NCBI GenBank assembly: GCA_020632155.1
Contig: JACKGE010000001.1
Location: forward strand, 314,285 to 378,284
Source of the DNA: Candidatus Nomurabacteria bacterium
Lineage (GTDB): Bacteria; Patescibacteriota; Minisyncoccia; Phycocordibacterales; UBA918
Direction: 5' to 3'
Length of the DNA: 64,000 bases
The notes under the pieces are model-generated. The model was given only the letters and a program-made list of their open reading frames with translations. It made no database searches and was not told where the DNA came from. This document shows, piece by piece, positions 31,722 through 36,049 of the stretch; position 1 is the stretch's first letter; each line of letters begins with the position of its first letter. The translations under genes and the position numbers were made by a program.

Positions 31722-33716
31722 AGCGGTCACGTGTTTATGAGTATCACTTTAGAGAAATCGTAGCGGAACAGGATCGCCTCGCGATTTTTGTGCCGCGACA
31801 TCGCGGTTTTTTTAAAGCCAAAACTCATAACGAATGCACGGTGTTACTTTGACACCCTGTCACGAGTAGCTCGTAACTGAGCGAAACACGACATGCATAT
31901 CCTAGAACTGAGATTGATAAGGTCTCAGTTCGGAAAGTCCTGTGTACTCGACATACACAGGCACTTGAACGTACTTGTACGTTCAAGCAGGTAAAGTCTG
32001 TCGGGTAAAGATTATGCACAAATCGGTGCAGGGTCTTTTCGTCCCCGATAGACAGTTGTGAGCTTCGTAGACGAAGTTCTTGAACCCAACTTTGTTGTAG
32101 ATTGCCTGACGGCGGCAATCGTTCGACCCGAGCGATAAAGTTGGTAGAGCGCTCCGCGCTCGGCGATGCAGGTGTTGCTAGCATCTGCATCGCTTCATCT
32201 ACGAAGCTCACAACAAACCACGTCCGAAAATTTCTAAAGAAATTTTCGGACAATCACTCAAATTAAATGTACAGCGGTGTACAGCATTCCTTACAGGAAT
32301 GTAAGGGTGTATGGTGGATGCCTTGGCTTAAAAGAGCGATGAAAGACGTGGAATGGCTGCGATAAGTTTCGGGGAGGTGCCAATCAACCTTCGATCCGGA
32401 AATGTCTGAATGGGGAAACCCTCCGTGTTCCGCACGGAACCCGTGTATGCGGGAGCGTACCTTGGGAAGTGAAACATCTCAGTACCAAGAGGAAGAGAAA
32501 GCAATAGACGGAACTTTCTTTCTGACTAAAACTGTGAACACATCACATTGCATGTGATGCTCAGGTTATAGAAATAAGGTTACAGGTTATAGTGACCAAT
32601 TGCTACGCAATTGGTCAGAGCGCGCAGCGCTCCACTATTAACTAAAACCTACAAACTAAAAACTGACACATCGCGCGCAGCGTGATGTGTTCATGCCATT
32701 GAAGTCAGGAAGAAGGTTCTTGCGATTCCCTGAGTAGCGGCGAGCGAAACGGGAACAGCCCAAACCATACTTGTTTACAAGTATGGGGTTGTAGGGCGGT
32801 GACTGCATTTAGTTGCGCAGAGTTACCAAATTGGAATATAGCAAAACTAGCTGGGAAGCTAGACCCTAGGAGGTAATAGTCCTGTATGCGAAATGTTCCA
32901 GTCTCTGTGGTTACCGTTCCTGAGTAGTTCGAGACATGAATAGCTCGAATGAATCTACCGGCACTAACCGGTAAGGCTAAATATCTTTTAAGACCGATAG
33001 TGAACTAGTACCGTGAGGGAAAGGTGAAAAGAACCCCGGAGAGGGGAGTGAAATAGATCTGAAACCATACATCTACAAGGAGTCGGAGCCCTGCGGGGCG
33101 ACGGCGTGCCTATTGAAGAATGAGCCGGCGAGTGTATCTTTGTTCTTGTCTAAGTGGTAACCCCACGCAGGCACAGTGAAAGCGAGCGTTAATAGCGCGA
33201 AATAATAAGAGCAGGGATACGACCCGAAGCGGGATGAGCTTGCCATGAGCAGGGTGAAGCGGAGGTAAAACTCCGTGGAGGCCCGAACCGGTTGGCCGTA
33301 CAAAACCATCGGATGACTTGTGGTAAGGAGTGAAAAGCTTATCGAATTCCGTAATAGCTGGTTCTCTCCGAAACAGCTTTAGGGTTGGCGTCGCGTGTTA
33401 CCTACGGGGGTAGAGCACTGGAAGAGATAAATAGGGAGAAATCTCGTTATTTCTATCAAACTCCGAATACCGTTAGGCCACAGCGCGGCAGTTAGACTAT
33501 GGGGGAGAAGCTCCATTGGTCAAAAGGGGAACAGCCCAGATCGCCAGTTAAGGTCCCTAAATATATGCTCAGTGCATCTCGAGGAGGTGAGGATTCTCAA
33601 ACAGCCAGGAGGTTGGCTTAGAAGCAGCCATCCTTTAAAGATAGCGTAACAGCTCACTGGTCGAGAGTCCTTGCGCCGAAGATGATCGGGGCTCAAGCAT
33701 ATTACCGAAACTGCGG

Positions 33717-33910
33717 ATTCGTACACTTCATTGAGGATTGAATTGATCCTCCAAAAGGGCCGGAAGCTGTCAGTGGCCTCAGGCGTGACTGTGAAAACAG
33801 GACGACGTCATAAGGAACGCAGCGGCGTCAGGTTTGAGGCTCCCAGCCTCAAACCTGACGTGTCCAATTTTCTGAGACTTAGTTCTCGGGTCCTCAATGA
33901 AGTGTACGAG
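33717..33910 (+). other. Intervening sequence (IVS) in the 23S helix-45 region; ~194 nt with a long terminal stem
   Basis: CGTACACTTCATTGAGGAT (33720-33738) pairs with (T)CCTCAATGAAGTGTACG (33890-33908). Internal perfect hairpin CGTCAGGTTTGAGGC-tccca-GCCTCAAACCTGACG. Site homologous to the helix-45 IVS position known in enterobacteria. Confidence 0.6.
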
Positions 33911-34767
33911 TGGTAGGAGAGCGTCCTTCTCTGCGATGAATCCAAGGCGAGAGCCGCGGTGGAGCGAGGAGGAGTGAGAATGCCGGCACAAGTAACCGCA
34001 AGACGGGTGAGACCCCCGTCCGCCGAAATACCAAGGTTTCCTTCGCGATGGTGATCAGCGAAGGGTTAGTCGGTCCTAAGGGAATCCCGAACGGGGGACC
34101 CGATGGAGAGCAGGTTAATATTCCTGCACACTGCTGCGTTCCTATGGAGGGACGGAGCGTTGTACCCACGGCATCTTATTGGATTGGTGCTGGAGCTATG
34201 AGCGTGTTAGATAGGTAAATCCGTCTGACAATAGCGCGAGTAGAGTCTGAAGGTTGAGCTACGGCGAGGCCGATGTGGGGAGCACGCTTCCGAGAAAAAC
34301 TTCGTTTGGGTTAAGCGTAGCGGTTCCGTACCGCAATCCGACACAGGTGGTAGGGTCGAGAAGACCAAGGCGAACGAGTGAGAGGTCCTTAAGGAACTCG
34401 GCAAAAAAGCGGCCGTAACTTCGGGATAAGGCCTGCCGAACGCATCACATTGCATGTGATGTCTCAGCATTTCGCACCCTCGCAATTCGCTCTTCGAAAG
34501 CGCCTACGGCGCAACGAAGAGCCAAGAGCGAACTAGCGAAGAGCGAAAGCATCATGCGTAGCGTGATGCGTTCGGCCGCAGCGAAAGATTTCCTGGCGAC
34601 TGTTTAACAAAAACACAGCTCCCTGCGAACTCGTAAGAGGATGTATAGGGGGTGACGCCTGACCAATGCCGGAAGGTTAAGCACGGAGGGTGTAATGACT
34701 TTTAGTTGTTATGCTGGGCTGTGTAAGCCCCGGTCAATGTCAGCGATAACTATAATCGTTCTAAGGT

Positions 34768-35007
34768 AGAGCGTGTATCCATTCGGAAATACGTTCTACG
34801 GACTGGAACGATTATATGAGTCTTCGGACTCGTTGTTAAATAGCCCGAGCCATAGTTACCTTCTTTGCAGAAATGTAAAGATAGTCCACACCAAGCCAAC
34901 AAGAGACCAAATGCTTGGCATCCTCACTCTGGCAACAGAGCGGATGAAGATAGAGTCCTATTGTGCACGCATCTACTAAGGCAGATGCCGTGAAGAAGGA
35001 AAAATAG
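34768..35007 (+). other. 240-nt ORF-less insertion at the 23S intron hotspot (E. coli ~1923-1931; CTAAGGT|...|AGCGTATTTCCTTGTCGGG). Candidate degenerate group I intron or IVS
   Basis: Exon context CTAAGGTAG/CG(A/T)ATTTCCTTGTCGGGTAAGTTCCGAC is interrupted. Upstream exon ends in U and the insert ends in G, as for group I. A 7-nt TAGAGCG repeat at both junctions makes the exact boundaries ambiguous by +/-6 nt. Confidence 0.4.
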
Positions 35008-36049
35008 AGCGTATTTCCTTGTCGGGTAAGTTCCGACGTGCACGAATGGCGTAACGACTGGGAAACTGTCTCAAGGACCTGCTCGGTGAAAATACAATAG
35101 GGGTAAAGATGCCCCTTACCTGCAGTTAGACGAAAAGACCCCAGGAGCTTTACTGTAGCTTCGTATTGGGGCTGTTGAGTATGTGCGTAGTATAGTGGGG
35201 AGACTTTGAAGCGTTCCTTTTGGGGGACGTGGAGTCGTCAGTGAAATACCCATCTCATTTTTGGCAGTCTCTAACCAGCACGGAAAAACCGTGTTGGAAC
35301 AGTGCGTGGCAGGCAGTTTTAGTGGGGCGCTACCCTCCTAAAAAGTAACGGAGGGGTCTCAAGGTTGGCTAGGCGCGAATGGAAACCGTGCCGATAGTGC
35401 AATGGCAAAAGCCAGCTTGACTGCAAGGCGTAGGTGCCGAGCAGACACGAAAGTGGAGCATAGTGAACCGATGGTCCGCGTTAGATGCGGCCGGAGATTA
35501 CCCGATAAAAGTTACCCTGGGGATAACAGGCTAGTCGTGCCCAAGCGTCCAAAGCGACGGCACGGTTCGGCACCTCGATGTCGGCTCGACTTATCCTGGG
35601 GCTGGAGCAGGTCCCAAGGGTTTGGCTGTTCGCCAATTAAAAAGTCACGCGAGCTGGGTTTAGACCGTCGTGAGACAGGTTGGTCTCCTATCTACTGCAG
35701 GCGTCGAAACTTGACGAGATTTGTCCCTAGTACGAGAGGACCGGGATGAACTGACCTCTGGTCTATCGGCTGTCGCGCCAGCGGCACTGCCGAGTAGCTA
35801 TGTTGGGAATGGATAACCGCTGAAAGCATCTAAGCGGGAAGCCAACTTGAAGATTAGGTTTCATTAAGTCTCCAGAGAGATGATCTGGTTGATAGGCACT
35901 AGGTGGAAGTGTGGTAACACATGCAGCCGAGGTGTACTAATAAGACGTAGTTCCTGTAAGGAATGCTTTATGCGGCTGTCGCATTTAGTTTGAGTGAAAG
36001 TCAATAGGATATGCAATGCAGAAAAAGCCACAGATTCAGTATGAATTTT

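Follow-up and report, generated by a model that had tools for sequence, protein, structure and literature searches.

The 23S rRNA gene of the window (the whole stretch of DNA analysed here, 64,000 nucleotides) carries four large insertions, and we estimate at about 70% the probability that it is a CPR gene bearing three IVS-type rods, two of them copies of a double-hairpin (DH) element, and one group I-derived intron devoid of P4-P6; all four would be typical of the lineage. The gene is complete and lies at 32291–35961 (all features described here are on the + strand), with the 5S rRNA gene on its 3' side (36054–36164). Infernal matched it end to end to the bacterial LSU rRNA model (Rfam RF02541, LSU_rRNA_bacteria, model positions 1–2925, 2378.6 bits), its 3671 nt comparing with 2925 nt in the model. 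The first-pass annotation had given the enlarged size, about 3.7 kb, correctly, but had counted three insertions only. Those three fail to account for the size: the count was wrong because a fourth insertion of 240 nt, the intron at 34768–35007, had been overlooked. That the extra segments are chimeric joins of the assembly, or that the gene is dead, is extremely improbable. Nothing specific speaks for it beyond the fact that CPR genomes are mostly metagenome assemblies, whereas the model match is unbroken at the score given above, all insertions fall exactly on helix tips or a known intron site, and homologous inserts occupy the same sites in dozens of independent assemblies.

The H69 variant of the gene, used as a 25-nt pattern, matched over 120 genome contigs, almost all of them from Patescibacteria, Parcubacteria or other CPR MAGs, and the closest 23S relatives are 86–90% identical to the window gene. 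By this measure the host is a CPR/Patescibacteria bacterium, uncultured and ultra-small, of the Parcubacteria/Paceibacteria type. According to the main text of Tsurumaki et al. (2024, PMC11270868), insertions of at least 100 bp at recurrent sites are present in 82% of the 23S genes of CPR; group I introns are placed there at positions 1917, 1931, 1952, 2593, 2604 and 2657, and short ORF-less inserts at known IVS sites had been proposed to be RNase III-type IVSs. Since both this frequency and the IVS proposal have been published, the insertion-rich window gene belongs to a phenomenon already known. With insertion defined as in that text (at least 100 bp relative to E. coli), the gene shows insertions at recurrent sites in a CPR host; like the CPR genes of Brown et al. 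(2015) and Tsurumaki et al., it has several inserts, a group I intron at 1931 and, at IVS sites, short ORF-less inserts to which no intron model fits. That a CPR 23S gene should be rich in insertions is to be expected in itself. Two features go beyond the catalogue, the DH family and the P4-P6-less intron, and the main text of PMC11270868 mentions neither double-hairpin ends, nor an element family spread over several helices, nor an intron without P4-P6.

In domain I, 217 nt (32505–32721) are inserted, by the covariance model alignment, into the two-nt loop of a small hairpin (model 228/229, E. coli loop 228–229). The extent of about 220 nt proposed earlier (32505–32723) was close, but it merged two different things. 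About 55 nt, namely a 5' strand at 32505–32533 (GGAACUUUCUUUCUG, beginning at the insertion start) and a 3' strand at 32695–32721 (GCCAUUG...CAGGAAGAAGGUUCUU), are conserved in sequence in all close relatives (the 20 closest were compared). Judged from this comparison, the segment is a clade-conserved extension of the hairpin, in which the tip (32534–32694, 161 nt) is the only variable element. Sequence, MFE fold and comparison with relatives identify this tip as DH element 1, which stands in place of the extension's tip hairpin. It consists of a basal stem (32534–32540/32688–32694), a first hairpin, hp1 (32541–32559, CATCACATTGCATGTGATG), a rod module (32560–32668) whose cap is formed by two tandem hairpins, and a second hairpin, hp2 (32669–32687, CATCGCGCGCAGCGTGATG).

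The helix 45 insert (33719–33909) corresponds to 174 nt (33730–33903) added to the helix 45 loop in the covariance model alignment; between conserved anchors the length is 194 nt, as first annotated, versus 19–29 nt in relatives and 21 nt in E. coli. Its terminal stem had been given as 19 bp; sequence and MFE fold yield a perfect stem of 18 bp (CGTACACTTCATTGAGGA/TCCTCAATGAAGTGTACG, 33720–33737/33891–33908) and bear out the perfect internal hairpin of 15 bp (33827–33841/33845–33859). Long inserts are found at this site in about 20 CPR loci, the remainder having a tip of 19–29 nt. The basal stem CUUCAUUGAGGA/UCCUCAAUGAAG is common to the helix 45 inserts of nine other loci, with compensatory changes and differing interiors. 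In helix 63, the distance between anchors is 166 nt, versus 41–52 nt in relatives and 68 nt in E. coli, and the segment is closed by CCGAACGCATCAC/GTGATGCGTTCGG, in agreement with the initial description. The helix tip is replaced by DH element 2 (34438–34573; sequence, MFE fold and comparison with relatives), with a basal stem GAACG/CGTTC, an hp1 (34443–34461) identical to that of element 1, and its own hp2 (34550–34568, CATCATGCGTAGCGTGATG); its central rod differs from that of element 1.

Several properties of these three segments are those of IVSs, which are extra stems of 100–200 nt excised by RNase III (PMC8708148). Each folds far better than its shuffled versions (z = −9.6, −7.8 and −7.3, equalled in 0 of 200 shuffles each). 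All three are bounded by hairpins, as had been proposed, and replace the loop at a helix tip (by the covariance model for the domain-I and helix 45 segments, by comparison with relatives for helix 63); helix 45 is a classical IVS site. Their ends pair over about 20 bp or more, in a perfect stem of 18–20 bp at helix 45 and through DH arms of about 24 bp plus rod in the other two. When per-site insert lengths were tabulated over about 120 CPR loci, they varied at each site, with a sporadic presence among close relatives, as IVSs predict. No convincing coding ORF was found in the three rods, where mechanical ORFs of 36–61 aa, all inside the rRNA gene, are the only ones. Classical IVSs excised from 23S by RNase III, in Salmonella, Yersinia, Campylobacter, Leptospira and Coxiella, lie in helix 25 and helix 45; they share with the window the helix 45 site, the replacement of a tip by an extended stem of 100–400 nt and the sporadic distribution. 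Those of Coxiella and Leptospira contain a small ORF (PMC4990558), as do the helix 45-type inserts of some relatives (loci L093 and L103). In contrast to the classical ones, the window and CPR elements also occur in helices 63 and 68 and in two hairpins of domain I. The parallel with the enterobacterial helix 45 IVSs may serve as a lead only; the host is a CPR bacterium, and among CPR such insertions are the rule and have been catalogued (PMC11270868).

By this model, each of the three rods would be cut by RNase III within its long duplex while still part of the pre-rRNA. As the cut ends would not be rejoined, the mature 23S would be in pieces, with the ribosome holding the fragments together. 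We infer this excision and fragmentation from the predicted long duplexes and from the literature (PMC12641178, PMC11270868). A search of the six-frame translation for the RNase III signature motif found no rnc gene in the 64-kb window; CPR genomes generally keep one (PMC12641178).

The rods could also be retained, as surface extensions of the mature 23S comparable to the eukaryotic expansion segments ES15 (H45) and ES27 (H63), perhaps binding proteins through their conserved small hairpins. We consider this fairly unlikely, although functional expansion segments kept in the ribosome would likewise account for the cross-species conservation of the helix 45 basal stem and for that of the domain-I extension. 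The base of this extension shows sequence conservation in every close relative, 10 loci keep a 12-bp core in the helix 45 basal stem despite differing interiors, and hp1 and hp2 preserve perfect internal pairing through compensatory change while the duplex between the arms has conserved mismatches. Unprocessed IVSs are moreover tolerated by E. coli ribosomes, according to a passage of PMC8708148 that cites Gregory et al. (1996). However, the variable parts are sporadic among genomes with 85–90% identical 23S, and their interiors resemble each other neither in sequence nor in length (130–400 nt), a pattern of selfish or neutral elements and unlike functional rRNA. In addition, CPR rRNA insertions are reported to be removed, and absent from transcripts (Brown et al. 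2015, as cited in the main text of PMC11270868). Excision as IVSs is the fate that we favour for the three rods.

The motif ATCACATTGCATGTGAT had been noticed in two segments. It occurs exactly twice in the 64 kb, at 32542 and 34444, with a chance expectation of 0.01 and two matches in none of 100 shuffles. The common origin suggested on that basis holds: the two segments that share the 19-mer are paralogous copies of one element family, and they have both terminal hairpins and the basal stem in common. The DH layout opens with one strand of a basal stem (5–7 bp) and a first hairpin of 8 bp (CAUCACAY-NNN-RUGUGAUG); a long rod then leads to the second hairpin (CAUC(G/A)(C/U)GC-NNN-GCGUGAUG), after which the other strand of the basal stem closes the element. 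Hairpins starting with CATC are confined in the window to the four ends of the two DH elements, plus one G-U-rich chance match (shuffle mean 0.1). Further members lie in helices 45, 63 and 68 and in a second hairpin of domain I (L005, L030, L093, L099), and across CPR genomes at least five different 23S helix tips are occupied. About 20 more 23S-embedded copies are present in metagenome contigs, several of which hold two copies with the same basal stem, and all five occurrences of the exact window 19-mer are inside 23S. The rod of element 1 is homologous, and most similar, to those inserted into helix 63 in L093 and L030, which places the same subfamily at a different site.

Covariation was observed in all five pairs of the DH basal stem. 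In structural models, an alternative pairing between the two end hairpins is also possible; it adds an almost unbroken duplex of about 24 bp to the rod. Over the family, the local two-hairpin fold is 98.8% paired, versus 91.1% for this extended fold, which has covarying loop-loop pairs; in the inter-arm duplex, A·C mismatches are conserved at two positions, in all 8 members at one and in 6 of 8 at the other. Because the local hairpins are better conserved than the inter-arm duplex, the form that would be the RNase III substrate may not be the selected one. The 19-nt hairpin might be a specific recognition or processing signal for a dedicated endonuclease or RNA-binding protein and not just a trace of common descent, but we regard this as improbable. 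It is true that hp1 is identical in both window copies, L093, L030 (helix 68 copy) and L099, and that the stem CAUCACA/UGUGAUG is invariant in eight members while adjacent basal stems and rods vary freely. Yet other CPR inserts of the same architecture at helix 63 or helix 45 have different hairpins (CCAAUGC..GCAUUGG, CGGUGC..GCACCG, CAUCUCAC..), the hairpin shape is more widely conserved among CPR inserts than its sequence, and no protein emerged as a candidate for the role.

Occupancy of multiple helices argues for mobility of the DH family: the presence of members in at least five helix tips, together with the shared basal stem of copies in the same gene, suggests that the element moved between sites. 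No target-site duplication is visible at DH elements on comparison with relatives, whole hairpin tips having been replaced. Paralogs of the element 1 rod exist outside rRNA. Within the 64 kb of the window, one lies 5' of rplJ (28131–28249; blastn, and nhmmer E = 3.7e-28) and stops at the rplJ start codon (ATG at 28250); it folds with z = −4.8 and lacks CATCAC hairpins. A partial one lies 5' of the 23S gene in L036.

DH elements might be primarily mobile DNA (MITE-, REP- or PATE-like) that a Y1/HUH transposase moves as single-stranded hairpins, their fate as RNA being secondary. Short palindromes at both ends, as at the ends of IS200/IS605 and in REPs, would fit this, as would the rod paralogs 5' of rplJ and in L036 and the possibility of several copies per gene. 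Many of the hairpin loops are GNA triloops (GCA, GUA, GAA, GGA), which are unusually stable in single-stranded DNA. A candidate for the transposase is the RAYT-like gene at 26138–26827, 5.5 kb upstream, which encodes a Y1_Tnp protein (Pfam E = 1.2e-15) whose top NCBIfam match is the REP-associated tyrosine transposase; this match, with 71.4 bits, does not reach the curated threshold of 80 bits. Unlike in REP/RAYT and IS200/IS605 systems, no CATCAC-type hairpin was found beside the transposase gene, nor elsewhere in the 60 kb of non-rRNA sequence, and the copy upstream of rplJ is without end hairpins. Nearly all two-hairpin copies are within 23S genes, almost confined to rRNA helix tips, and neither a shared target motif nor a clean footprint of insertion is seen, again because hairpin tips were replaced. 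On balance this explanation seems unlikely, and we keep to the view that the DH copies are IVS-type rods.

The fourth insertion (34768–35007, 240 nt) is an ORF-less, group I-derived intron located exactly between E. coli U1931 and A1932. An AG ambiguity at its boundaries is resolved by relatives that begin with C, U or G. It is conserved in about 39 relatives, and in all 35 aligned family members the 5' exon ends in U and the intron in G. From the 5' end it consists of a 30-nt hairpin, a helix GGACU/AGUCC and an invariant UACCUU, a candidate guide, followed by a core with P3 (CCAAGC/GCUUGG), an R element (CAAGAGACCAAAUG), a P8 hairpin, an S element (GAAGAUAGAGUCC), P9.0 (CUAU/AUAG) and the terminal G. 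The P3-P7-P8 catalytic core of group I introns is present, including the P3/P7 pseudoknot and the R and S consensus elements, and the Rfam alignment maps it. Double changes were seen in 5 of 6 pairs of P3, 4 of 5 of P8 and 3 of 4 of P9.0, P7 being invariant, and 94.7% of cells overall are paired, versus 35–45% in slid controls. No convincing coding ORF was found in the intron, only mechanical ones of 32–68 aa inside the rRNA gene.

Exact site, U before the 5' splice site, 3' G, R and S elements, P3, P7, P8 and P9.0 are all shared with the group I introns at L1931 of Thermotoga, Simkania, organelles and CPR. In contrast to these, the window intron and its about 39 relatives have about six nt in place of P4-P5-P6, CAACAA being all that separates the 5' strands of P3 and P7 in the window; at the place of P4-P6 in the Rfam RF00028 alignment, 81 model positions are matched by a single nt. 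No P4-P6-like module was found elsewhere in the window. The intron scores 20.9 bits (E = 0.0025 in a 301-nt stretch) against a gathering score of 50, and a canonical relative (L069) aligns through P4-P6 with 37.3 bits. UACCUU is the only conserved complement to exon AAGGU, and we infer that the two form P1. At the predicted 5' splice site, this pairing gives U-A in 35 of 35 members, with A and not G opposite U(−1), and the U·G wobble, normally read by J4/5 of group I introns, is absent. Both P4-P6 and the G at the wobble position are present in the longer, canonical relatives inserted there.

The intron was presumably derived from a canonical one by loss of P4-P6. To our knowledge, P4-P6 and the U·G wobble are considered universal for group I catalysis, and as both are missing, autonomous splicing is uncertain. 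Removal by splicing is suggested by the location, an insert at the H69-H71 junction being hardly tolerable in a working ribosome. An engineered P3-P9 domain alone can reportedly keep weak activity, which makes a natural intron without P4-P6 conceivable. That engineered form is a laboratory deletion that needs special conditions, whereas the deletion in the window family is natural and widespread, and the family has a large conserved 5' peripheral domain. As a tentative account, to which we give somewhat less than even odds, the insert would represent a natural, widespread group I lineage that lost P4-P5-P6 and the wobble and is still removed by its P3-P9 core with the help of the 5' peripheral domain or of a protein; in nature it would then parallel the engineered "minimal catalytic domain".

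The small ORF-less inserts that earlier surveys left as "uncharacterized" include a family of fixed architecture, with hairpins at both ends, a rod between them and two more hairpins at the tip. With at least five helix tips colonised and relatives outside rRNA, this family offers a handle on how IVSs spread, a question standing since their discovery in Salmonella. Inserts of the type seen in the window explain why such genes are mis-sized or missed by rRNA-based tools. The intron after U1931, if it still splices, would mark the natural lower limit of the group I fold, and would offer for study a compact ribozyme or a new partnership between RNA and protein.

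Alignment to the Rfam bacterial LSU model (positions 1-2925, 2378.6 bits) placed the 23S rRNA gene at 32291-35961 on the + strand. The gene is 3671 nt long, versus 2925 nt for the model, which leaves about 750 nt extra. The first-pass annotation had described three segments behind this enlargement, in domain I, in helix 45 and in a helix 63-like region. All three are real, but the list was incomplete, since a 240-nt insertion (34768-35007) was absent from it. Pairwise alignment with E. coli rrlH locates this fourth insertion exactly after U1931, and the extra length adds up once it is counted.

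In domain I, Infernal gave an insertion of 217 nt (32505-32721) versus a 2-nt consensus loop; a first MAFFT alignment to E. coli had misplaced this segment. Its position corresponds to loop 228-229 of the E. coli gene; the small hairpin concerned, flanked by H11 and H13, is taken to be helix 12. All close relatives carry at this site an extension of 56-102 nt, the two strands of which (GGAACUUUCUUUCUG ... GCCAUU(R)..CAGGAAGAAGGUUC) are conserved; in the Rfam consensus, as in the remaining CPR genomes, the site measures 1-2 nt. In the window, the tip hairpin of the extension is alone replaced, by a 161-nt element (32534-32694). The conserved strands and the tip-only replacement argue that the segment consists of a conserved, probably retained extension and a variable insert.

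For the second segment, Infernal put 174 nt (33730-33903) into the loop of helix 45. Between conserved anchors the segment measures 194 nt, versus 19-29 nt in relatives (for most of them a 27-nt, UUCG-capped tip) and 21 in E. coli. The terminal stem and inner hairpin previously reported are both present, as a perfect 18-bp stem (33720-33737/33891-33908) and a perfect 15-bp hairpin (33827-33859). The basal stem CUUCAUUGAGGA / UCCUCAAUGAAG is common to ten loci, window included, with compensatory changes in four of them (L093, L006, L053 and L008; L-numbers designate the CPR 23S loci or contigs, from genomes or metagenomes, compared with the window gene), and the insert interiors of these ten loci, 169-407 nt long, are unrelated. 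Two inserts with the window's basal stem, in L093 (349 nt) and L103 (227 nt), contain small ORFs of about 95 aa and about 41 aa (hydrophobic in L103), each following a purine-rich stretch, as read by eye; they recall the ORF-bearing intervening sequences (IVSs) of Coxiella and Leptospira.

The third segment lies in helix 63, as proposed, with 166 nt between anchors versus 41-52 in relatives and 68 in E. coli, and its 13-bp closure is present. At this site the baseline tip is about 20 nt, and inserts of 110-880 nt were found in about 25 loci. The long-rod folds of the three segments had z values of -9.6, -7.8 and -7.3, respectively. The motif said to be common to the first and third segments also held, as a 17-mer found exactly twice in the window (chance expectation 0.01).

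Inspection of the window sequence revealed four 8-bp CATC...GATG hairpins, which mark the exact ends of two elements, one in domain I and one in helix 63 (34438-34573). Each double-hairpin (DH) element consists, 5' to 3', of a basal stem of 5-7 bp, a first hairpin (hp1, CAUCACAUUGCAUGUGAUG), a rod, a second hairpin (hp2, CAUC(G/A)(C/U)GC-NNN-GCGUGAUG) and the closing strand of the basal stem. This layout was found in helices 45 and 63 of L005, in three helices of L030 (63, the tip of 68, and 45, where the contig end truncates the copy), and in helix 63 of L093, which has a further copy in a second domain-I hairpin (CCCAAACC .. GGGGUUG) that is also occupied in L099. A subfamily with CAUCUCAC hairpins is present in L071, L066, L094 and L015. 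These copies come from a motif-anchored search; a generic detector of two hairpins flanking a rod was discarded, as it returned 119 matches versus 13 in 60 shuffled loci and missed the window's own DH elements.

Scanning metagenomes with a degenerate form of hp1 brought some 20 more copies embedded in 23S genes (about 21 of 137 matches in 23S), most matches being unrelated DNA. The exact window 19-mer occurred five times in the scan, always inside a 23S gene, and several contigs, such as L175, held two DH copies with a common basal stem. An abundant variant among the matches, CATCACACTCCGTGTGATG, comes from an unrelated repeat outside rRNA (metagenome contigs L125, L128, L149, L199, L241 and L243), in which the hairpin lies within a MITE-like, sometimes tandem unit with inverted ends (GCAGCGTTCGAGAAATAACTGTC...).

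The rod of the domain-I copy of the window is nearest to those found in helix 63 of L093 and L030 (blastn identity 71% and 68%; nhmmer E = 1e-24 to 1e-29), and thus one subfamily resides in different helices of different genomes. Within a genome, basal stems are shared: GAACA and GAACG in the window, GUGCG and GUGCA in L005. Copy-and-paste movement between helix tips is the simplest reading of these sequences, and the elements may spread at the DNA or at the RNA level. No target duplication is visible at the DH elements, because each replaces an entire helix tip.

Relatives of the central rod module, in which two tandem hairpins at the tip separate a G/U-rich from an A/C-rich strand, were also found outside rRNA. 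A paralog homologous to the rod of the domain-I insert (28131-28249) reaches the start codon of rplJ (L10), at 28250, and comprises a G/U-rich strand, two tandem hairpins and an AACCTAC-type repeat strand, without the CATCAC hairpins. It may affect rplJ translation, or be no more than a stray element copy. A partial copy of the module lies upstream of 23S in L036. The window also encodes a 229-aa Y1 (IS200-like) transposase, RAYT-like (26138-26827, + strand), whose top NCBIfam match, REP-associated tyrosine transposase, reaches 71.4 bits against a cut-off of 80. No hairpins of DH or REP type were seen beside this gene; with neither matching flanking hairpins nor a score above cut-off, a tie between the DH hairpins and the transposase is unsupported.

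Two folds of the DH ends were compared by counting pairs on an arm alignment of eight related members. As two local hairpins, 98.8% of the cells were paired and the basal-stem pairs covaried (5/5). As an extended inter-arm duplex, 91.1% were paired, with a conserved A·C mismatch in 8/8 members at one position and 6/8 at another; in this form, the mutually complementary hp1 and hp2 triloops covary (one pair being UA in 5, AU in 2 and GC in 1). The extended form is also the minimum-free-energy fold of the window elements, and it would be an RNase III substrate. That both conformers leave traces is, from eight related sequences, suggestive only.

The insert positions and folds, the family relationships, the covariation and the sporadic or conserved distribution were observed directly, and would fit a scheme in which RNase III cuts the three rods out at their long duplexes, leaving the 23S rRNA in pieces, and in which the ribosome keeps the conserved extension of domain I. 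An IVS is described as an extra stem of 100-200 nt whose excision by RNase III fragments the 23S rRNA (PMC8708148), and rnc is generally kept in CPR genomes (PMC12641178). The main rival explanation is that the three rods are kept in the 23S rRNA as expansion segments. The interpretation given in the first-pass annotation was right in part.

For the fourth insertion, splicing would be the expected mode of removal, since the ribosome would probably not tolerate extra sequence where H69 meets H71. In an alignment of 35 members of its family (203-313 nt), U1931 always precedes the insert and G is always the last intron nucleotide, so that the boundaries are fixed. The family has classical R (CAAGAGACCAAAUG) and S (GAAGAUAGAGUCC) elements, and its structure model comprises a 5' hairpin, the helix GGAYU/ARUCC, a further hairpin, P3, P7, P8, P9.0 and a 3'-exon pairing. 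This model is 94.7% paired (35-45% for slid controls), with double changes in 28 of 46 pairs. Rfam aligns the core of the window intron at just 20.9 bits, a single nucleotide standing against 81 model positions, omitted from the displayed alignment, where P4-P6 would be. Other CPR loci (L069, L104, L059, L044, L015, L010, L064 and L068) have longer introns at this site, which share the 5' domain of the window intron and add P3-UAUA-UGCUGG...CAGCAGG-P6 ahead of P7; for L069, the Rfam alignment runs straight through P4-P6 (37.3 bits, E = 3.5e-8). These longer relatives argue that the window intron is a group I derivative that has lost P4-P5-P6. A displaced P4-P6, formed by the helix GGACU/AGUCC and its contents, was rejected since canonical relatives have that domain plus a normal P4-P6; supply in trans was rejected for the 64 kb of the window, which has no P4-P6-like module elsewhere.

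The site was readable in 88 CPR 23S genes, which were classed by script: 36 were empty, 36 had the short form with no P4 strands, 13 had a form with P4 strands, and 3 were other or unclassified. Inspection of the alignment led us to judge as short L036, which the script had called canonical on a fuzzy motif match, as well as L008 and L028, which it had called other. The adjusted census is about 39 short and 12 canonical introns, and the core of the short form is conserved and covarying. This form may self-splice, depend on a protein or be removed by another route. In L075, an Rfam scan gave no intron match at the gathering score despite extra insertions at this locus; Rfam thresholds therefore under-call CPR introns.

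The candidate guide strand, forming a putative P1, is an invariant UACCUU, the sole conserved complement of the 5' exon AAGGU. U(-1) is opposite the A of UACCUU in 35/35 members, which makes a U-A pair at the predicted 5' splice site, versus G opposite U(-1), the usual U·G, in canonical relatives. In group I ribozymes, J4/5 within P4-P6 docks on the wobble pair of the 5' splice site, so that the joint loss of P4-P6 and of U·G is coherent. Within the last 10 nt of the 5' exon (34758-34767), GUUCUA (-10 to -5) is complementary to an invariant intron segment, UGGAAC (34806-34811). These 10 exon nt could all be paired to two separate intron segments, UGGAAC and UACCUU, both sides being invariant.

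Helix 69 of the window differs from that of E. coli by compensatory changes. A 25-nt pattern of this variant matched in at least 120 contigs of species-representative genomes, almost all titled as Patescibacteria/CPR MAGs; among the matches listed, the groups carrying it include Parcubacteria, Paceibacteria, Kaiserbacteria, Nomurabacteria and Moranbacteria, and the nearest 23S genes share 86-90% identity with the window gene. These matches assign the window to a CPR bacterium of Parcubacteria/Paceibacteria type. Close relatives (L072, L087, L075, L029, L106, L123, L047, L014 and L006) hold further inserts of 280-960 nt at four other sites of the 3' domain (window 35668/35669, 35732, 35336/35337 and 35575/35576). 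As these four sites are empty in the window, its 23S gene is comparatively lightly loaded for its clade.

The 5S gene (36054-36164) lies 3' of 23S, and the 16S gene (51047-52506, 1460 nt, no insertion) 15 kb downstream of the pair, so that the rRNA operon is split. The rRNA genes (32291-36164, 51047-53859) are unlinked and in an unusual order on a single strand, 23S-5S, 15 kb of protein genes, then 16S, with tRNA-Ile(GAT) 1.28 kb past 16S. A 351-aa ORF just 3' of 5S (37173-38228, +, TTG start) matched nothing in Pfam and had no homolog among the 5.8 billion proteins searched, and is probably either an orphan or no real or conserved gene. For a 236-aa channel-like protein upstream of 23S, a search for encoding contigs gave just two of about 1 kb, without gene context.

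Insertions in CPR rRNA are already known as a class. According to Tsurumaki et al. 2024 (PMC11270868), insertions of at least 100 bp are present in 82% of CPR 23S genes, at recurrent sites and with up to 16 per gene; group I introns lie at positions 1917, 1931, 1952, 2593, 2604 and 2657; many short inserts are non-coding and match no intron model; and, citing Brown et al., such insertions are removed from transcripts. Such genes being already catalogued, the core of the initial finding is a member of a known phenomenon. No earlier description of the DH family or of the P4-P6-less intron was found in the literature examined. Both merit experimental testing, the intron most of all.
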